From a plasmid: a stretch of 5,749 bases of DNA. The notes under the pieces were generated by a model that had not been told where the DNA came from, did not search any database, and worked only from the letters and a program-made list of their open reading frames with translations. This document shows positions 1 to 5,749 of the stretch, one piece after another. Made by a program: the position numbers and the translations under genes. The stretch lies in the sequence record NZ_CP102537.1; one strand, written 5' to 3'. Position 1 is the first letter of the stretch. Every line of letters begins with the position of its first letter.

Positions 1-196
1 GACACCGAAAGAGCCAACGAAGAACGCGGACGAGGAGGGCCGAAACAATTCCAAAACGAAAGTGCGCAGCTTCAGTGTCCGCCTTGACCTTTGGGAGAAG
101 CTGGACACCTATCGAATCACACACCGCACCAAATCTGGGACAATCCCCTCGGCTTCAAGCATAGTAAACGAAGCCCTTGAAGCCTACCTCAAATGA
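1..196 (+). CDS. 3'-partial CDS entering from before position 1, read in the frame of position 2, stop TGA at 194-196. Translation: ...TPKEPTKNADEEGRNNSKTKVRSFSVRLDLWEKLDTYRITHRTKSGTIPSASSIVNEALEAYLK*. C-terminal ribbon-helix-helix-like fold, with a putative beta-strand (KVRSFSVRL) followed by two helices. Candidate ParG-type partition adaptor/repressor.
   Basis: Hand translation of frame 2 shows no stops from position 2 to 196. The basic-strand/helix/helix pattern is typical of small RHH proteins. It continues in frame the partial ORF at 5688-5749 if the sequence is circular. Confidence 0.5.
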   Translation, partial: TPKEPTKNADEEGRNNSKTKVRSFSVRLDLWEKLDTYRITHRTKSGTIPSASSIVNEALEAYLK

Positions 197-275
197 CTAT
201 GACACTATCAACTATGACACTATGACACTATCAACTATGACACTATCAACTATTACACCATGACACTCATAGTTG
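194..275. repeat. Iteron-like direct-repeat array: five perfect copies of ATGACACT at 199, 214, 222, 237 and 260, and one degenerate copy ATTACACC at 252. Three copies are separated by the 7-bp spacer ATCAACT, giving a 15-bp period. The array is closed by an inverted element TCATAGTTG at 267-275, which is the reverse complement of CAACTATGA.
   Basis: Read directly from the sequence. It lies between two convergent genes, the RHH ORF stop at 194-196 and the rep stop at 253-255, and overlaps the last codons of rep. Confidence 0.85.
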
Positions 276-1737
276 GCAGATAGTCCCCCGGTTTGGCTTC
301 GCCATCAGCTATGGCGTCCTGCTGTTCGTCAGTGAGTATGACGCCACCGGGCAAGAGCCGTGCGACTTCCTGCCAGTCTTCGCGTTCGGCGGCATCCAAT
401 GCGTCGGCCAGTGTCTCAGGCGCACTCTTGCGAATGTCTTTGTAAACCCGATTCGGCACGACATAGCCGACCAGACCGGGCAGTTCGTCGGCTTTCTCCG
501 CCAGCTCCTCGTCTTCCAGTTCCTCGACCTCCATGTCTTCCTTGAGGCCACGCGACCATGTTATGCAGCGGCGGCGCAGAGTGGCCTGCCAGTATTCGAG
601 CCAGAGATCTTCGCGCTGGAAATCGGACAGCCCGAGGCACCCGGAGTCCAGCAATTGGAACGGGTTAACCGACCCCATACGACCATTCTTGATATCGCCG
701 CGCGCGATTTCCTGAGCCAGAGTGACGCCGCCTTTGTCGCCTTGAATCTTGGTGATGTATTCGGCCGCAGCGGTTCCGGCGTCCTTGCCCGACTTGAATT
801 GCAGATCTATGCCGTGTTCGTCGTTCGGGGCGACGTTGTAGGGGTTGCCGTCTTTTTTCTTGTATGCCTTGGCAACGCGCTTGACCATGGTTTTCCAGCG
901 ATCGAGCAGCCATTGCTGCATTGCCTCACGCTGCCCATCGTCCAGATCGCCATCGAGAAACATGACGAAATGAATGTGAGGGTGCCAGCCGTTCACACCG
1001 TAGGTGATTTCAATCGCGCGGACGAAACCCCTGATTTTCCAACGTTCCGAGGCCCGTTGCCAAGGGCTTCCGTTAATCATCTTCGTCCAGCCCTTGAGGA
1101 TTGCGTCAAGGGTCATGGCCAGCGGCATTGTCCGATCATGGCGCAGGGTGAGGGTGCCGAAGATGTAGTTTCCGAAGCTGTCGGACACCATGAGTTCCGG
1201 CGGCAGACGCTGCCCCTCATGTTCTGCCTGCCATTGGTCGGCGGCGGCTTTCCTCAGTTTCTCGGCATGGTTCCCGATGGCGAGGGCGACCTCGTGGGCG
1301 CGTTCGTGGCGAATGATTGCCGAGCAGGTGGGGCATGCCCAGATCGAGCCGCACAGCATGGTGCCTGTAAACCGGGCTTTCTCGCCGTTGGTCATGACAC
1401 CCACGCCGGTGTCCACCGGTTGGCCGCAGCGTGCGCAGCGCGGCAGCTTAATCGGCTCGAATCCGAGCGTTTCGCCACCGGCATGACGGACGAGAATCTT
1501 TCGGCTTTCAGCGCGGCGACCATACGCCAGACGCCGTAAATCGGTGCGGGAGAGGGAGGGGGTTATTTTATTCGTCTTTTCCCAAGGCGGGCCGCTACGC
1601 GCCCCGCTTGCCGCTTCCGCGGCTACGCCTTGAGGCTTCGCCGCTACTGCGGCGTGCAGCCGTTCGGCGGTCTGGTGCTGGGACGGTGAAGGGACACCCA
1701 TCGGGTTCCACTTCGTCCCCTGAGTTGGTACACTCAT
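253..1737 (-). CDS. rep: Rolling-circle replication initiator (HUH endonuclease superfamily Rep), 494 aa.
   Basis: The three RCR motifs occur in canonical order. Motif 1 is FGTLTL at aa 193-198. Motif 2, the HUH motif, is GWHPHIHFVMF (H252/H254/H256, nt 970-984). Motif 3 is AAEYITK with catalytic-Tyr candidate Y327 (nt 757-759). An N-terminal CxxC...C...CxxC cluster (C101, C104, C129, C135, C138) is zinc-ribbon-like. ATG at 1735-1737. The C-terminal tail is acidic. Confidence 0.88.
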   Translation of the reverse strand: MSVPTQGTKWNPMGVPSPSQHQTAERLHAAVAAKPQGVAAEAASGARSGPPWEKTNKITPSLSRTDLRRLAYGRRAESRKILVRHAGGETLGFEPIKLPRCARCGQPVDTGVGVMTNGEKARFTGTMLCGSIWACPTCSAIIRHERAHEVALAIGNHAEKLRKAAADQWQAEHEGQRLPPELMVSDSFGNYIFGTLTLRHDRTMPLAMTLDAILKGWTKMINGSPWQRASERWKIRGFVRAIEITYGVNGWHPHIHFVMFLDGDLDDGQREAMQQWLLDRWKTMVKRVAKAYKKKDGNPYNVAPNDEHGIDLQFKSGKDAGTAAAEYITKIQGDKGGVTLAQEIARGDIKNGRMGSVNPFQLLDSGCLGLSDFQREDLWLEYWQATLRRRCITWSRGLKEDMEVEELEDEELAEKADELPGLVGYVVPNRVYKDIRKSAPETLADALDAAEREDWQEVARLLPGGVILTDEQQDAIADGEAKPGDYLPTMSVMV

Positions 1738-1789
1738 AGTGACGACTTTCTAAAGTTGTAGCCAGCGGTGCAAAGTTTGGCGACCTAGA

Positions 1790-1799
1790 CCGCTAGCGG
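1790..1799. promoter_or_regulatory. Perfect 10-bp palindrome CCGCTAGCGG in the rep upstream region. Possible operator or Rep/regulator binding site.
   Basis: Self-complementary 10-mer lying 53 bp upstream of the rep ATG, between the candidate -35 (TTGAAA, complement of 1802-1807) and -10 elements of a leftward promoter. Confidence 0.3.
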
Positions 1800-1811
1800 A
1801 CTTTCAAGATT

Positions 1812-1848
1812 CCCCCCGGGGTTCCAGCCCCGGGGGGTTTCCTTTTAT
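1812..1848 (+). terminator. GC-rich hairpin: CCCCCCGGGG (1812-1821), loop TTCCAG, CCCCGGGGGG (1828-1837), followed on the + strand by TTTCCTTTTAT. It has intrinsic-terminator geometry on the + strand. It also lies 16 nt downstream of the stop of the leftward FtsK-like gene, so it may act as a terminator or insulator for that operon.
   Basis: Perfect 10-bp stem with a 6-nt loop read from the sequence. The U-tract is present only on the + strand side; the - strand side reads AAUCUUGAAAG. Confidence 0.5.
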
Positions 1849-1863
1849 CAGCTGTGACTCAGT

Positions 1864-2724
1864 TTAAATTACACCCTTGTGATTCGCAACAACGGCCCTT
1901 TCTGCCTCCTCTTCGCTCACGTACGCGAATCGGCACATCACGTCTTCGCCGGTGGCCAGTCCGATGATGGCGCCACCACGACGGGCCGGTGGTATGTCGG
2001 TCGGGGAGGGGGAACCGTCCGGCATGTCGCCCAGTACGGCTCGTGCTGCTTCCGGTGTCTTGACGCGGAAGCAGATACGGTTCTCGCAGTTCTCGCGTAG
2101 TGCCGATGGCAGCGAATCGGTGGTAGGTTTCTGGGTGATGGCGAACAGGAGGAAGCCTCCCGACCGGCCTTTCTGCACTATCTCCGTGGCGGCGGCGGTG
2201 ATTTCCTCGGCCTTGTCTTTCGCCGGCTTGCCGCCCAGTATGCCTTTGGCGTTGAAGAAGCTCTGGCATTCATCGATGATGATCACTTCGAGTGGCGGGC
2301 GTTTATCGGGTTGGACGTTCCAATAGTTCGCGGAACCATACCGCTGACGCATAGAGGCTATACGACATTTCATTTCGTCATCGAGCCTCAGGAGGGTGTC
2401 ATGCACAGTATCAAGATCGCCACGAACGAATGTCGTGGCGTGTTCCGAGAACCAGCCCCAATCGTCGCCGCCCTTGCCGTCAATCACGTGGATATTGCAG
2501 CAGCCGGACAGGTACAGAGCCAATACGATGACCATCATTCCAGCGGTTTTGCCGCTTCCGGGAATGCCTCCCACAACGACTCCGGACGTGTTGGTGACAA
2601 TCAGTGTGGCGTCGTTTCCGTTGGCGAGTTTTCCCACCGTGATCCCGCCGGTTGCTGGGTCGAACGGCCGAAGCCGGAACGGTAGTGGTTCCGGCTTCGT
2701 GTTGTGGTTCCATGGCCATTTCAT
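1864..2724 (-). CDS. FtsK/SpoIIIE-family DNA-translocase ATPase, 286 aa from ATG 2722-2724. Resembles the TraB/TraSA/Tra main transfer proteins of actinomycete plasmids and AICEs. The frame stays open upstream to 2949, but that extension is Arg-rich and probably not coding.
   Basis: Walker A GGIPGSGKTAG. Walker B EVIIIDECQSF. FtsK signature block FLLFAITQKPTTDSLPSALRENCENRICFRVKTPEAARAVLGD, compare the FtsK motif ATQRPS...IKANIPTRIAFQV..DSR.IL. The ATG overlaps the upstream gene's TGA as ATGA (2721-2724). Confidence 0.85.
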   Translation of the reverse strand: MKWPWNHNTKPEPLPFRLRPFDPATGGITVGKLANGNDATLIVTNTSGVVVGGIPGSGKTAGMMVIVLALYLSGCCNIHVIDGKGGDDWGWFSEHATTFVRGDLDTVHDTLLRLDDEMKCRIASMRQRYGSANYWNVQPDKRPPLEVIIIDECQSFFNAKGILGGKPAKDKAEEITAAATEIVQKGRSGGFLLFAITQKPTTDSLPSALRENCENRICFRVKTPEAARAVLGDMPDGSPSPTDIPPARRGGAIIGLATGEDVMCRFAYVSEEEAERAVVANHKGVI

Positions 2725-3293
2725 GCGACCACTCCCGTGATGGGGCGATCTAGAGCGGTCTGGACGGTTTCGCCTGGCGAAAGCTGCAATGTGATTCTGC
2801 CAGGCCTTTTGCTGTCCTCGCTGATTGCGAACGAACGGCAGCGCCATACGCGGGCGTTCAATTGCAATAGTTCCTTGAGATGGTCCGGAGCCATTCCGGC
2901 TTCGCCGCCTCCGTCGAAAAACACGTAGGTGTCGCCCCGTTGCTTCCATGTGGTTGCGGGAATGACGTGTGTCTTGTCCGGGTCGTTGTAAATCTTCGCG
3001 GTACGCAGCGCGGCGCAGGTGTCCACCCGATCAGCTCGGGCGACCATGCCCCAGACGGGCACCATGTACACGATGGCGGGCGAGGCTCCCGACCTTATCG
3101 GACGCCAGAAGATTCCGACGACGAACAAGGCAGCAACGAGGGCGGTGAGTCCCCAGCCGATTGTTTTATAGCCGGCCATGAACAGGACGGCGATCAGTGC
3201 GGCGGGCAGCAGAATGCTGAGGGCAAACGCCGTGCCATAGTCCGGCGACTGCTTCCGCTCTTCAATCTTCTGCTGATCTTGCGTGCTAGTCAT
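2721..3293 (-). CDS. Small membrane protein, 190 aa from ATG 3291-3293. It has two N-terminal transmembrane helices (GTAFALSILLPAALIAVLFMAGY and GWGLTALVAALFVVGIFW) and a roughly 110-aa soluble C-terminal domain. Candidate Spd-like spread protein or membrane partner of the FtsK-like ATPase.
   Basis: Hydrophobic helices read from the translation. GGAGG lies 6 nt upstream of ATG 3293. The alternative GTG start at 3332 would overlap the upstream gene by 47 nt. The stop TGA overlaps the ATG of the ATPase gene. Confidence 0.6.
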   Translation of the reverse strand: MTSTQDQQKIEERKQSPDYGTAFALSILLPAALIAVLFMAGYKTIGWGLTALVAALFVVGIFWRPIRSGASPAIVYMVPVWGMVARADRVDTCAALRTAKIYNDPDKTHVIPATTWKQRGDTYVFFDGGGEAGMAPDHLKELLQLNARVWRCRSFAISEDSKRPGRITLQLSPGETVQTALDRPITGVVA

Positions 3294-3657
3294 TGTCCGC
3301 CTCCGTGAGGTCGAACGAGGCCGAGAGGTCACGCATATACTGTGCCTGCGCGTGACGGGTCATGTAGCGGTCGTGCAGGTACTCCCACGCTGTGGCGGTG
3401 ACGCGCAGCTCATACCATTCGGCACCGTAGACATCGCGGTCGATTATGGTCAGCCAGCGAGGCCAGTCGTCACCGAGGAGATCGCGGGCGACCTGAGCGG
3501 CATCGCCGCGAGTCTCAAAGCTGATTCCGACCATGTTGGCGAGAATCCCATAGCGCACGGCCTTTTCGCCGTCACAGGTGAGATCGAAGCCACAGCGAAG
3601 CGCGTAGTCGAGGAGCTTTCGGTCGAGCTCCAATGTGAACGTGTCTTCTTTTTCCAT
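3286..3657 (-). CDS. Hypothetical protein, 123 aa, with no motif I can recognise.
   Basis: ATG at 3655-3657 preceded by GGAGG, 5-nt spacing. It directly abuts the stop of the upstream RHH gene (TGA at 3658-3660). Its stop TAG at 3286-3288 lies 2 nt before the next ATG. Coding-like composition. Confidence 0.55.
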   Translation of the reverse strand: MEKEDTFTLELDRKLLDYALRCGFDLTCDGEKAVRYGILANMVGISFETRGDAAQVARDLLGDDWPRWLTIIDRDVYGAEWYELRVTATAWEYLHDRYMTRHAQAQYMRDLSASFDLTEADND

Positions 3658-3825
3658 TCATTCCTCCATTCGAGCGAGCATTGCGGGCACTTCCGCTTCC
3701 ACAAGACGGTTGATGATGCTGGAGCGCGAAGTGTTGGTGTACCCCTCACGCTTGGCCCTATAGACGGCATCGTCCAGAGCGGCGACGGTGGTGCAGGGCA
3801 ATGTGATGCAGATACGGCGAAGCAT
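3658..3825 (-). CDS. Ribbon-helix-helix (CopG/Arc/MetJ-type) DNA-binding protein, 55 aa: MLRRICITLPCTTVAALDDAVYRAKREGYTNTSRSSIINRLVEAEVPAMLARMEE. Likely operon repressor.
   Basis: An N-terminal beta-strand (RICITLP) followed by two helices is the typical RHH layout. ATG at 3823-3825 preceded by GGAGGAGGAG, 5-nt spacing. The longer ORF-track start at 3930 lacks this RBS and would overlap the upstream gene. Confidence 0.6.
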   Translation of the reverse strand: MLRRICITLPCTTVAALDDAVYRAKREGYTNTSRSSIINRLVEAEVPAMLARMEE

Positions 3826-3827
3826 TT

Positions 3828-4223
3828 TCACTCCTCCTCCAACGACGGCATGATGGGCGCTGTATCCAGCTGCATGACCCGTACGGAATCGGCGGTCAGA
3901 GACCATGCGACGCGGCCGTTCCTGACCCACGGAACGACGTGAACGGAGCCGGTCAGCTGGATACGGGAGAGCGGCGGAACAGGCGAGATAGGCGCAGTGA
4001 ACACGGCAAGGCTGACGTTGCTATCCACACCGTTTTCGTCGATGTACTGGCAGGGAATCTGGAAAACCGGGCGACCGTCAACGAGTTTTGGCGTGGTTGT
4101 CACGTGCCCCTGATCGTCGTACGTCATCTTCTGCCGGATAGTGGCGGGGTCGATTCCCCGCGTCGTCTGAAACGCGCCGGGAATGTCGGCGGCGTTCATG
4201 GCGAGGTTCGGACTGAATGGCAT
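3828..4223 (-). CDS. Hypothetical protein, 131 aa from ATG 4221-4223. Composition suggests a beta-rich fold. First gene of the leftward operon.
   Basis: GGGAG RBS 6 nt upstream of ATG 4223. The longer GTG start at 4337 would lie inside the promoter/operator region, upstream of the predicted -10. Stop TGA at 3828-3830 lies 2 nt before the RHH ATG. Confidence 0.5.
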   Translation of the reverse strand: MPFSPNLAMNAADIPGAFQTTRGIDPATIRQKMTYDDQGHVTTTPKLVDGRPVFQIPCQYIDENGVDSNVSLAVFTAPISPVPPLSRIQLTGSVHVVPWVRNGRVAWSLTADSVRVMQLDTAPIMPSLEEE

Positions 4224-4246: not shown

Positions 4247-4329
4247 GCTGGGGCACGGGATTGCGCCCCAGCGGACTTTCACCAAACAGCATACAGGCAT
4301 ACCTGTATATTGTCAACAGTTTAAACTGT
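4247..4329. promoter_or_regulatory. Cluster of dyad symmetries in the divergent intergenic region. An 8-bp-stem hairpin GCTGGGGC...GCCCCAGC (4247-4272) falls in the 5'UTR of the leftward operon. The inverted repeat ATACAGGcataCCTGTAT (4291-4308) sits inside the promoter spacer. A perfect 14-bp palindrome ACAGTTTAAACTGT lies at 4316-4329. CTGTAT/ACTGTA motifs recur at 4303-4308, 4325-4330 and 4344-4349. Likely operator sites.
   Basis: Read directly from the sequence. The sites overlap the candidate promoters of both divergent transcription units. Confidence 0.5.
4288..4316 (-). promoter_or_regulatory. Candidate sigma-70-type promoter for the leftward five-gene operon. The -35 TTGACA is the complement of 4311-4316, followed by a 17-nt spacer. 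The -10 TATGCT is the complement of 4288-4293.
   Basis: Perfect -35 hexamer with canonical spacing, read on the minus strand. The spacer contains the inverted repeat ATACAGG-n4-CCTGTAT (4291-4308). Confidence 0.4.
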
Positions 4330-4358
4330 AGGTACACCCTAGACTGTATGATTTAAAC

Positions 4359-4862
4359 ATGAATCAGCCAAAATTCGACATCATTCCCGACGAAACGAAC
4401 CGGGAACACAACACCAGAACCAAAGCGGCACTGGAGCTGCTGGAAAGCAACAAAGAATTACGCGACTGGGCAAAAACCCACTTCCTCGCAGAATTACGCA
4501 ACATGATTACCAATCAGATAGTCGAGGAAGGTCATGAACTCTCAGACGAACTCATGAAGTACGGCGTACGACTGTGCCCCAAAGTCGCCATGGTTTGGAT
4601 CGCCAATGAATTGGAGAACAACGTGGGCGCGATTACAGAATGGCTTGCCGGTTTTGCCTACTGGGAGGGCGACAGCAAGGCAAATCTTGCAAGGGCTGTA
4701 GGAATACGCCAACAAAGCTACGCCACCCATTTCCGGCAGCTAGAAGAAATCGCAGCAGCCCAAAACAAGGCCGACGAAACCGGACAAGACCAAACAATCA
4801 GCCTCCGAGGGGCACCATTCATAATTCACCCCGGACCCAGCGAAGAAGAAGACCAGGAATAA
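4359..4862 (+). CDS. Hypothetical protein, 167 aa, with a helix-turn-helix-like segment (SKANLARAVGIRQQSYATHFRQL) and an acidic C-terminus. Possible regulator. Lower-GC module.
   Basis: Long ORF with coding-like composition and no SD. A TATGAT -10-like hexamer (4347-4352), preceded by TG, ends 6 nt before the ATG, which suggests a leaderless mRNA. Confidence 0.55.
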   Translation: MNQPKFDIIPDETNREHNTRTKAALELLESNKELRDWAKTHFLAELRNMITNQIVEEGHELSDELMKYGVRLCPKVAMVWIANELENNVGAITEWLAGFAYWEGDSKANLARAVGIRQQSYATHFRQLEEIAAAQNKADETGQDQTISLRGAPFIIHPGPSEEEDQE

Positions 4863-5091: not shown

Positions 5092-5691
5092 ATGATACTT
5101 AGCATTATCGCGTCAAAAGGCGGAACCGGGAAAACGACCAGCAGCATATTCCTAGCCTGCGCCGCTCATACCGCAGACCCGTCACTGTCAATCACCCTCT
5201 TGGACGCCGACCCACAGCAAAGCGCCACGGACTGGGCGGAAGAAGCCGAGCAAAACAAAGACCCGCTCCCTTTCATGGTCAAATACGCCGGAGAATCGGA
5301 CATCGAAAACCTAAAGGACAACGAGGGCCTGACCATCATCGACACGGCACCGGGATTCACCGACCTCACCCAGACAATCATCGCCAAATCAGATCTGTGC
5401 ATCATCACCACCTCACCAACCCAGATTGACGCCCGGAGGGCTTGGAAGACGTTCGAAGCAATCCAAAGAGCAGGCGGAACCTCGGCAATCCTCATCACAC
5501 GAGCCAATACGCGCACGAAGGATTTCAGGGATATGATCGACGACCTGCACAACGACGACGCGAACAATGGAATCCTCTTCGATACCGTCATCAGACAATC
5601 GACCAGATACTCGAAGCCGTTCGGACACACGCCAAAGAAAACCTACGACTATGCAGACGCATGGCAAGAGATACAGAAAGCAGGGGAATGA
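5092..5691 (+). CDS. parA: ParA/Soj-family partition ATPase, small type Ib form, 199 aa.
   Basis: Deviant Walker A KGGTGKTT at the extreme N-terminus (MILSIIASKGGTGKTTS). Walker A' is DADPQ and Walker B is IIDTAPG. Its size and the absence of an N-terminal HTH fit the ParF-like subclass. Confidence 0.88.
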   Translation: MILSIIASKGGTGKTTSSIFLACAAHTADPSLSITLLDADPQQSATDWAEEAEQNKDPLPFMVKYAGESDIENLKDNEGLTIIDTAPGFTDLTQTIIAKSDLCIITTSPTQIDARRAWKTFEAIQRAGGTSAILITRANTRTKDFRDMIDDLHNDDANNGILFDTVIRQSTRYSKPFGHTPKKTYDYADAWQEIQKAGE

Positions 5692-5749
5692 TGGCACTCG
5701 GAAAATTCAGCAGGAAAGCAGCCGAACAGGCACCCGGCGACATCTCAAT
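5688..5749 (+). CDS. 5'-partial CDS, MMALGKFSRKAAEQAPGDIS..., that runs off the window end. Its start overlaps the parA stop as ATGA. Candidate N-terminal flexible tail of a ParG-like centromere-binding partner. It is in frame with the partial ORF at 1-196 across the end-to-start junction.
   Basis: ATG 5688-5690 overlaps TGA 5689-5691. The frame is open to the end. The last two bases AT plus base 1 G form ATG, and the frame continues into the frame-2 ORF ending at 196. Confidence 0.45.
   Translation, partial: MMALGKFSRKAAEQAPGDIS

Follow-up and report, generated by a model that had tools for sequence, protein, structure and literature searches.

A small Bifidobacterium breve plasmid whose probable DNA-transfer region encodes an FtsK-family motor and, in a separate gene, its likely membrane anchor

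Organization of the locus

The 5749-bp Bifidobacterium breve plasmid in sequence record NZ_CP102537.1 carries five consecutive minus-strand genes between positions 4223 and 1864, here named orfA to orfE, which encode products of 131, 55, 123, 190 and 286 amino acids as read directly from that strand. The window, meaning the whole 5749-nt stretch of DNA that was analyzed, is the entire circular replicon in circular permutation, and the gene for a ParG-like protein spans its ends. The five genes probably make up the DNA-transfer (tra) region of a rolling-circle Bifidobacterium plasmid of the pCIBb1/pB21a/pASV479 type. The last of them encodes a motor of the FtsK family that has no membrane segment of its own, and OrfD is very likely the membrane anchor and linker of the same translocase, encoded as a separate gene (Table 1).

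The genes are tightly packed, with spacings from orfA to orfE of +2 (TGAaaATG), 0 (TGAATG), -8 (ATGACTAG) and -4 nt (ATGA), and each of the five is preceded by a GGAG-type Shine-Dalgarno motif 4-9 nt before its start. These spacings bear out an earlier, sequence-only reading of this DNA that had described a compact, translationally coupled gene unit. Three of the junctions it gave, namely TGA-AA-ATG (3830-3823), TGA-ATG (3660-3655) and the ATGA overlap (2724-2721), are correct on direct reading. The remaining one, given as TAG-nn-ATG (3288-3291), was misread, as orfC and orfD overlap by 8 nt, with the orfD ATG at 3293-3291 and the orfC TAG at 3288-3286.

Gene callers run on eight independent metagenome copies return the same 131/55/123/190/286 products. 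In all five genes the GC content at third codon positions (GC3) is 0.68-0.76 versus 0.40-0.50 at second positions (GC2), and the order GC3 > GC1 > GC2 is that of the plasmid's other genes. Furthermore, comparison with a diverged sister plasmid, L025 (labels of this kind denote the related contigs and plasmids discussed below), gives ratios of nonsynonymous to synonymous substitution rates (dN/dS) of 0.05-0.21 for all five. This purifying selection indicates that the five genes are real, the orphan orfC included.

The plasmid as such is already known. By exact protein look-up, OrfE matches AAD34710.1/WP_010891331.1 at 100% identity, and OrfA, OrfC and OrfD are identical to proteins from a 5749-bp record named 'Bifidobacterium breve plasmid', in which the OrfE homologue is annotated as a shorter, 257-residue protein. 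A citation in PMC4007704 describes pCIBb1 as a cryptic rolling-circle plasmid of 5.75 kb from B. breve NCFB 2258, published in 1999. The age of the accession, the host and the match to 5.75 kb strongly suggest that the present plasmid is pCIBb1 (accession AF085719) or one identical to it. What is known already thus comprises the published plasmid, the annotation of its ATPase as FtsK-like, and the occurrence of small FtsK-like transfer genes beside rep genes of rolling-circle replication (RCR). As the element is published and its ATPase annotated as FtsK-like, the findings described here are only moderately surprising.

A megablast search of PLSDB with the whole plasmid returned only a 33-bp chance match. 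The nearest plasmids in PLSDB are pB21a of B. breve (NC_010930) and pASV479 of B. pseudolongum (NC_010877), which have Rep, OrfE, OrfD and OrfA in common with the present plasmid and, unlike it, lack both orfC and a ParA/ParG system. OrfE is 65% identical to its homologue in pB21a and 58% identical to that in pASV479, and the corresponding values for Rep are 36% and 52%, with ~31% identity to the Rep of pIJ101. The transmembrane (TM) protein gene and the ATPase gene of pB21a overlap by 4 nt, as on the present plasmid, whereas the anchor and motor genes of pASV479 lie 50 nt apart.

Table 1. Positions of genes and sequence features on the 5749-bp plasmid
Feature	Position	Strand	Description
orfA	4223..3828	-	131 aa, soluble; Shine-Dalgarno sequence GAAGGGAG
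orfB	3825..3658	-	55 aa
orfC	3657..3286	-	123 aa, acidic
orfD	3293..2721	-	190 aa, likely membrane anchor and linker
orfE	2724..1864	-	286 aa, motor-only ATPase of the FtsK/TraB/TcpA family
tra-rep spacer	1738..1863	-	126 nt between orfE stop (1864) and rep start (1737)
spacer hairpin	1812-1837	-	GC-rich; CCCCCCGGGG-N6-CCCCGGGGGG, then AATCTTGAAAGTCCGCTAGC
rep	253..1737	-	Rep_1 (PF01446) rolling-circle initiator, Pfam 1e-11; directly downstream of orfE
promoter-like site	4316-4288	-	TTGACA 4316-4311, 17 nt, TATGCT 4293-4288; 65 nt upstream of orfA
three palindromes	4348-4333 (imperfect), 4329-4316, 4308-4291	-	TACAG-N(6-8)-CTGTA type; overlap the -35 and -10 elements
orfF	4359..4862	+	167 aa; divergent from the operon; conserved in pASV479 (29%) and L021 (63%)
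parA-like gene	5092-5691		199 aa
parG-like gene	5688-5749 + 1-196		84 aa; runs across the window ends
direct-repeat array	196-267		7-8-bp units (ACTATGAC/ACTATCA), ~9 units; probable centromere

The motor protein OrfE

The sequence of OrfE contains a Walker A motif (GIPGSGKT, residues 53-60), a Walker B motif (VIIIDE, residues 147-152) and the motifs TQKPT and NRICFRV. The protein has no N-terminal TM segment, and its sole hydrophobic window (residues 60-83) lies inside the P-loop core. Residues 4-273 align with residues 387-648 of TraB from pSVH1 at 29% identity, which corresponds to the translocase domain only. OrfE ends ~13 residues past the aligned part, whereas TraB runs 124 residues further, and consequently OrfE has no C-terminal winged helix-turn-helix (wHTH) domain. 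The hydrophobicity reading and the TraB alignment therefore agree with the sequence-only reading, which had described a motor with no obvious N-terminal TM segment and no clear C-terminal wHTH.

OrfE matches PHROG 1358 (FtsK/SpoIIIE-like) at 1e-31, its best NCBIfam match, although below threshold, is plasmid_TraB, and several of its homologues do pass the Pfam FtsK_SpoIIIE model (PF01580). Among sequences in the PDB it matches TcpA (8e-8) and FtsK (6e-5). When Tra, TraB, TcpA and FtsK proteins are compared with OrfE on one phmmer bit scale, the 476-residue 'TraB' of Microbacterium scores 182 bits, followed by 477-residue proteins from a Staphylococcus plasmid (104 bits) and a 4.4-kb Streptomyces plasmid (93 bits), TraB of pSVH1 (72 bits), TcpA of pCW3 (35 bits) and FtsK (25 bits), while Tra of pIJ101 is barely similar (6.7 bits, rounded to 7). 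The PHROG match, the results of pairwise and profile comparison and the fold of a 40%-identical homologue together identify OrfE as an FtsK-family motor.

Relatives of OrfE fall into two size classes. Proteins of the short class (258-309 residues) mostly have OrfD-like neighbors or lie on small contigs of the Bifidobacterium type. Those of the long class (433-489 residues) are more distant, with ~34-41% identity to OrfE and E-values of 1e-38 to 1e-52, and a hidden Markov model (HMM) of this long Tra family matches OrfE with 319 bits. The Microbacterium 'TraB' is encoded in a RepSA...Tra-Xis-Int element, which is the canonical gene set of an actinomycete integrative and conjugative element (AICE) and contains no genes of a type IV secretion system (T4SS). 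OrfE thus has its nearest relatives among the transfer proteins that actinobacterial plasmids and integrative elements encode, as opposed to chromosomal FtsK or EccC of type VII secretion systems. This upholds the earlier assignment of the ATPase to the FtsK-family motors, and because these relatives are transfer proteins, OrfE does not cluster with a non-conjugative FtsK family.

OrfD and the split translocase

OrfD has two hydrophobic TM helices, at residues ~19-39 and 43-62. Its AlphaFold model (predicted local distance difference test score, pLDDT, 75) consists of a helix, the two TM helices, a short helix, a long helix and then beta, beta, alpha, beta and beta elements. The model of a long, single-chain homologue of OrfE, P0045 (pLDDT 86), has the same order of elements followed by the motor and ends in a single helix, with no wHTH. 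By the positive-inside rule, both ends of the OrfD TM hairpin would be cytoplasmic, which would place the linker domain on the motor's side of the membrane.

The relationship suggested by the models is also detected by profile comparison. In local mode, hhalign aligns the OrfD family with the N-termini of the long Tra proteins at 94.8% probability (E 5e-8). Even when the TM helices are left out, the soluble domain of OrfD scores 25.7, whereas eight controls with shuffled columns score 8-15 and a reversed control scores 9.7. In the opposite direction, an HMM built from 29 full-length long Tra proteins matches 18 of 19 OrfD-family members over profile positions ~37-54 to ~165-189, and the truncated 140-residue member P0086 is matched only to position 110. 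The scores are low (3.6-22 bits across the family, 12.6 for the OrfD of this plasmid), whereas the controls Rep, ParA, OrfB and OrfF score at most -0.4 bits, and OrfA and OrfC gave no match at all in this search. A virtual fusion of OrfD and OrfE is collinear with positions 47-469 of the long-Tra profile, and the combined length of the two proteins (190 + 286 = 476) equals that of the ~476-residue single-chain Tra.

The two genes are also maintained together. The 4-nt orfD/orfE overlap (ATGA on this plasmid) is kept in pB21a, L021, L025, L027 and the distant L022, and the dN/dS values against L025 of 0.13 for orfD and 0.21 for orfE indicate purifying selection on both halves. One result counts against the relationship: when 1.84 billion representative proteins were searched with a HMMER profile of OrfD, the long Tra proteins were not recovered. 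The search yielded OrfD-like proteins of ~190-224 residues and two short fragments; a repetitive Ig-like protein, P0095, also appeared and was dismissed as spurious after a Pfam scan. The homology is consequently remote, as the OrfD profile retrieved only OrfD-like proteins, and the case for it is made by the profile-profile, reverse-HMM and predicted-structure comparisons.

In all likelihood, then, OrfD is the detached N-terminal two-TM anchor and linker of a ~476-residue Tra protein, and the clade has conserved its translocase as a pair of coupled cistrons. The sequence-only reading had proposed that membrane anchoring may be supplied by a separate 190-residue two-helix protein. The anchor is retained here, whereas the idea of an independent or Spd-like partner is not, as the profile, HMM and model comparisons place OrfD as the N-terminal part of the translocase itself. 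In the ESX-1 system, the FtsK-family machine EccCa/EccCb likewise has its membrane-anchored part and its downstream ATPase part as separate, adjacent gene products.

The closest relatives of OrfE outside Bifidobacterium are the single-chain Tra proteins of ~450-490 residues found in AICE-like elements and on RepSA plasmids (e.g., Microbacterium esteraromaticum 'TraB', P0049). These proteins share the motor, also lack a wHTH and have an N-terminus laid out as OrfD is. In contrast to the single polypeptide of these systems, the Bifidobacterium clade has two cistrons throughout. Additionally, the AICE-like elements that bear such Tra proteins carry int, xis and an RCR rep, whereas the present plasmid has rep only and neither int nor xis. 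No earlier description of a two-cistron anchor/motor translocase conserved in this clade was found in the literature searched. The conserved split offers a handle for studying the recruitment of FtsK-like rings to the membrane.

Distribution of the module

In pB21a, L021, L025 and L027, OrfD and OrfE occur together with both OrfA and OrfB, and in pASV479 with OrfA only. The gene orfC is absent from pB21a, pASV479, L020, L021 and L027 and is present in L025 (97.5% amino acid identity, dN/dS 0.05). Consequently, the five-gene operon of the sequence-only reading stands as a description of five adjacent, coupled genes on this plasmid, whereas the conserved module comprises orfA, orfB, orfD and orfE only.

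Related genes also occur beside integrases. The segment L020:6653-11431 encodes an OrfA-like protein, a 56-residue protein, OrfD-like and OrfE-like proteins, a RepSA-type Rep, an HTH_17 excisionase and a tyrosine integrase. L019:312-3964 contains an OrfD-like open reading frame (ORF) truncated to 77 residues, followed by OrfE-like, Rep, HTH_17 and integrase genes, and L022:1-3357 contains genes for a TM protein and a short FtsK-like motor (4-nt overlap), a 72-residue protein and an integrase, with no rep called. The OrfD-like genes of the integrated elements L019 and L020 were recognized by BLAST and the OrfA-like gene of L020 weakly by hhalign, while the OrfB-like gene was assigned by position and size only. 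L019, L020 and L022 look like AICE-like elements or integrative mobilisable elements (IMEs) in relatives of Bifidobacterium.

The Rep of the integrated tra-rep-xis-int elements is REP_ORF2-G2P/RepSA-like, versus Rep_1 on the B. breve plasmid, and close relatives of the module are paired with three unrelated kinds of Rep (Rep_1, REP_ORF2-G2P/RepSA and Viral_Rep). As the integrated relatives carry a different Rep family, the module is portable between Rep types. No earlier description was found in the literature searched of the A-B-D-E module, nor of its presence in tra-rep-xis-int elements related to Bifidobacterium plasmids.

Accessory proteins and regulation

Homologues of OrfA occur only on Bifidobacterium plasmids and elements, pASV479 and pB21a among them, and the protein has no match in Pfam, NCBIfam, PHROG, PADLOC or PDB sequences. 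The OrfA-family profile matches a ~125-residue gene product encoded directly upstream of a single-chain Tra on the RepSA plasmids L016/L017 (hmmsearch 5e-6; hhalign 91.5%), with weaker matches in L015 and L020. Genes for proteins of ~125-135 residues lie just before a ~477-residue single-chain Tra gene in Streptomyces and other small plasmids (L029:1452-1859 and 16-1449; L015:65-1931; L016:2473-4336), and the pair looks like a recurrent two-gene unit; the proteins of L015 and L016 are remotely OrfA-like and the Streptomyces one is not detectably so.

The small Spd proteins that the sequence-only reading had expected beside the ATPase were not found. By hhalign, OrfA is unlike the pSVH1 and pIJ101 Spd proteins SpdA and Spd79, Orf108 and KilB (SpdB and SpdB2 were not compared), and its identification with Orf108 of pSVH1 or another Spd protein was rejected at <=0.1%. 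Similarly, the detectable relatives of OrfD outside its own family are Tra N-termini only, with no Spd or KilB protein among them.

OrfB has relatives in L021 (37-38% identity), pB21a (40%) and L025 (96%). A Pfam search at E<=10 returned only an unrelated domain of unknown function. The protein has the β-strand/helix/helix pattern of ribbon-helix-helix (RHH) proteins, and the OrfB-family profile finds NikR (E 0.47) and MazE9 (E 0.78) as its top two PDB matches, in each case through the RHH domain and in register from residue 1. The RHH regulator of the sequence-only reading is thus suggested by the pattern and by the identity of the top matches, while the matches themselves are below threshold. 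It is plausible that OrfB is an RHH DNA-binding protein, acting as a repressor or as an accessory factor in transfer.

Searches with OrfC against Pfam, NCBIfam, PHROGs, PADLOC and PDB sequences gave nothing informative, and no relatives of orfC were found in PLSDB (by tblastn) or in 185,579 GTDB species genomes, apart from two chance matches of 20 residues. The gene is a lineage-specific insert between orfB and orfD.

The 135-nt gap between orfA and the divergent orfF contains the promoter-like site and the three palindromes of Table 1. The related plasmid L021 retains the promoter and the repeated TACAGG motifs, and the palindromic stretch 4288-4348 is a candidate operator for OrfB and/or OrfF. 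OrfF has no significant family match in Pfam, NCBIfam, PHROGs, PADLOC or PDB sequences; a helix-turn-helix-like stretch, NLARAVGIRQQSYATHF, was noted by eye. The position of orfF, divergent from the operon, is that of the TraR/KorA repressor gene in Streptomyces plasmids, and from this position alone orfF, which falls outside the coordinates given in the sequence-only reading, is a candidate for a Kor/TraR-like regulator; its placement is more like that of TraR/KorA than the placement of orfB is.

The spacer between orfE and rep

The spacer between orfE and rep is nearly invariant across plasmids in which the flanking proteins are only 36-74% identical. Its conserved order is CCCCGGGG-CTGGAA-CCCCGGGG, AATCTTGAAAGTCCGCTAGC and then GGCTACAACTT..AGAAAGTCGT. 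On the minus (coding) strand the hairpin is not followed by a U-tract, so read-through into rep is possible. The spacer is probably the double-strand origin of rolling-circle replication, with the nick site, on which Rep acts, and is a candidate for an oriT/clt or an attenuator as well.

In L019 and L020, whose Rep belongs to a different family, a TCTTGA core is likewise found between tra and rep. The hairpin does not follow tra when the Rep family changes, and the TCTTGA core alone recurs, so the spacer is better explained as the origin used by Rep than as a tra-specific clt. The only repeat array on the plasmid (196-267) abuts the ParG-like gene and is more simply explained as a partition site.

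Proposed mechanism and alternative models

The literature offers two readings of FtsK-like genes on small RCR replicons, as the actinomycete pump for double-stranded DNA (dsDNA) or as the firmicute coupling protein TcpA. The B. breve plasmid falls between the two, being nearer to TraB in sequence and nearer to TcpA in architecture and gene order. Scans of the ORF list against Pfam and NCBIfam revealed neither a canonical Mob-family relaxase nor T4SS genes on the 5.7-kb plasmid. 

The reading favored here is autonomous dsDNA transfer of the TraB/AICE type, without a T4SS, although it is held tentatively and its likelihood falls a little short of even. OrfD would anchor the machine in the membrane through its two TM helices, with the beta-beta-alpha-beta-beta linker in the cytoplasm. 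OrfE, a RecA-type motor with intact Walker A and B and arginine-rich motifs, would assemble on OrfD as a hexameric ring, and this OrfD/OrfE ring would need no T4SS to pump the plasmid, as double-stranded DNA, into a cell in contact with the donor. Because the motor has no wHTH, the selection of DNA would be delegated, and the plasmid would be recognized by OrfA and/or the RHH-like OrfB. Expression would proceed from a single promoter at ~4316-4288 under the control of three palindromic operators, with OrfB and/or the divergent OrfF as the repressor in a kil-kor-like circuit, and OrfC would be an accessory insert.

This mechanism has precedents, as a single FtsK-like Tra protein suffices for transfer of Streptomyces plasmids and AICEs (PMC3218068, PMC4447253). 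The Streptomyces TraB/Tra systems also reside on small RCR plasmids with a pIJ101-related Rep, where the genes form an operon whose stop and start codons overlap and a regulator is encoded divergently, for which orfF is the candidate here (PMC4447253). The whole of OrfE resembles the motor of pSVH1 TraB. In contrast, TraB is a single chain of 772 residues, with 386 N-terminal residues before the part that aligns with the motor, whereas the 286-residue OrfE has a separate anchor. Moreover, TraB has a C-terminal wHTH that reads 8-bp clt repeats (PMC4447253), and neither was found on the B. breve plasmid. The Streptomyces systems also include Spd proteins and a GntR regulator, and no homologues of the Spd proteins compared above and no GntR regulator are present here.

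Several further observations weigh against the proposal. TraB-type transfer has been demonstrated only in mycelial actinomycetes, and a 2011 survey of 275 actinobacterial genomes found practically no integrative and conjugative elements (ICEs) of the FtsK/Tra type in Bifidobacteriales (PMC3218068, PMC3429521). No transfer has been reported experimentally for the pCIBb1/pB21a/pASV479 plasmid family. OrfE lacks the domain with which TraB reads clt, and no clt-like array of 8-bp repeats tied to tra was found; no repeat array is shared with pB21a, pASV479 or L027. OrfE also scores below the curated cut-offs of the relevant families, with 16.9 versus 24 bits for FtsK_SpoIIIE and 25.9 versus 800 bits for plasmid_TraB (NF041214). 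Finally, the architecture of two TM helices and then a motor, the match to the TcpA structure and the tcpA-like/rep gene order fit a TcpA-type role equally well or better.

The full version of the proposal, in which a plasmid of only 5.7 kb is self-sufficient in dsDNA conjugation by means of a two-piece pump that lacks a DNA-reading domain and is targeted by OrfA and/or OrfB, is rather unlikely. If it is true, T4SS-free conjugation of the Streptomyces type extends to the non-mycelial Bifidobacteriales, and the same module drives a family of unrecognized integrative elements (tra-rep-xis-int) in that order.

The strongest alternative is mobilization, a serious possibility to which we assign a modest likelihood. 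According to this model, OrfD and OrfE together form a TcpA-type coupling protein, the Rep_1 protein is the relaxase that nicks the orfE-rep site, and OrfB is an accessory protein of the relaxosome. The Rep-bound single strand would be delivered to a mating-pair-formation class FA (MPF-FA) T4SS of a co-resident ICE or megaplasmid, which would make the plasmid mobilisable and not self-transmissible, in contrast to the candidate self-transmissible minimal element of the sequence-only reading. TcpA of pCW3 from Clostridium perfringens and the TcpA proteins of Tn916/ICEBs1-type ICEs and streptococcal IMEs begin with two TM helices, continue with an FtsK-like motor and lack a DNA-reading gamma domain, an architecture that the OrfD/OrfE pair would reproduce, and TcpA is the best match among solved structures. 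The loss of the wHTH would be expected if a relaxase chooses the substrate. The gene order is also as this model would have it: orfE lies directly upstream of, and on the same strand as, the PF01446 initiator gene, and the tra-rep-xis-int order of the relatives is the compact order tcpA, RCR-type relaxase, xis, int of the streptococcal IMEs (Coluzzi et al., PMC5357655). The same work proposes PF01446 Rep proteins as dual-role relaxases whose plasmids are mobilisable via a helper T4SS, and notes, with reference to a Bifidobacterium study that includes pB21a, that FtsK-like proteins encoded on small RCR plasmids are assigned to TcpA by CONJscan (PMC5357655).

However, TcpA is a single chain that works with a T4SS, whereas the protein here is split in two, no T4SS partner is visible from the 5749-bp plasmid and the similarity to TcpA is low. 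In bits, OrfE is about twice as close to Streptomyces TraB (72) as to TcpA (35), and it is closest to the Tra of a RepSA-Xis-Int integrative element that has no T4SS genes. The unrelated Rep families used by close relatives of the module further argue against a tight partnership between a coupling protein and a relaxase. The spacer does not discriminate between the TraB and TcpA models, since the Rep origin could double as an oriT in the latter.

A role outside transfer by this machinery is improbable. The split pump might clear plasmid copies or multimers from the closing septum, or it might be a donor-only 'pusher' of DNA that relies on the competence of the recipient. FtsK-family motors do act in segregation, the plasmid invests in its stability through ParA and a ParG-like protein, the plasmid family has no reported transfer, and the account of Thermus TdtA transjugation in PMC5365140 documents DNA donation for an FtsK/HerA-like ATPase. 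Against these points, the nearest relatives of OrfE are mobile-element transfer proteins, not FtsK or SftA; the plasmid already has a dedicated Par system; and the module travels with integrases in the tra-rep-xis-int elements, where a septal role makes little sense.

The chance that OrfE instead assembles filamentous phage, as an ATPase of the Zot/pI type, or acts in defence, as a mad8/SspH-like ATPase with an FtsK domain, is very slim, as its matches to Pfam Zot (E 0.22), PHROG Zot-like (1.2e-4), PADLOC mad8 (1e-14) and SspH (8e-11) cover the P-loop core only and are far weaker than those to PHROG FtsK-like (1e-31) and Tra homologues (1e-48), and, although the replicon is a small RCR element, it is a known plasmid with ParA/ParG and has no coat-protein-like small TM ORFs and no partner genes of a defence system.

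This very small plasmid is abundant in metagenomes from the human gut, and B. breve, its host, is genetically tractable; the plasmid could consequently be used to decide between the TraB and TcpA readings. Such a decision would tell how small cryptic plasmids spread among bifidobacteria, probiotic strains included.

Replicon, partition cassette and related contigs

The Rep protein, a PF01446 initiator, belongs with the pIJ101 group. Its start is ambiguous: the longest ATG ORF encodes 494 residues, and gene callers on other copies give 482-483. A zinc-ribbon-like CxxC...CxxC pattern lies at Rep residues ~100-147, upstream of the Rep_1 core. An Rfam scan of the 5749-bp plasmid gave no match.

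The partition cassette is type Ib-like, with an ATGA overlap between the ParA gene and the gene for the ParG-like protein, which has an RHH-like C-terminus. The direct-repeat array follows right after the stop codon of the latter gene and is probably the centromere.

Contigs of 5.78-5.87 kb from metagenomes contain the 5749-bp plasmid in circularly permuted form. Proteins identical to OrfA, OrfC, OrfD and OrfE have also been deposited under a metagenome-assembled genome of Faecalibacterium prausnitzii (KH315_141xx), which is almost certainly a binning error for this Bifidobacterium plasmid; this deposit accounts for the UniRef label 'Bacillati' on the corresponding clusters. The 16.5-kb metagenome contig L021 joins at least two related plasmids in a chimeric or multimeric assembly, and every copy has an A-B-D-E-Rep_1-ParA backbone. 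One copy carries an EcoRI-type methylase and a GmrSD/HNH gene as cargo, and the other a D12 methyltransferase.

Within the operon (1864-4223), the divergence from the sister plasmid (L025:23-2366) is mosaic. OrfA, OrfB and OrfC are 96-97.5% identical between the two, versus 83% for OrfD and 74% for OrfE, and synonymous divergence (dS) is 0.2-0.3 in the orfA-orfC part versus 0.8-1.0 in the orfD/orfE part, which indicates a recombination breakpoint near the orfC/orfD junction.

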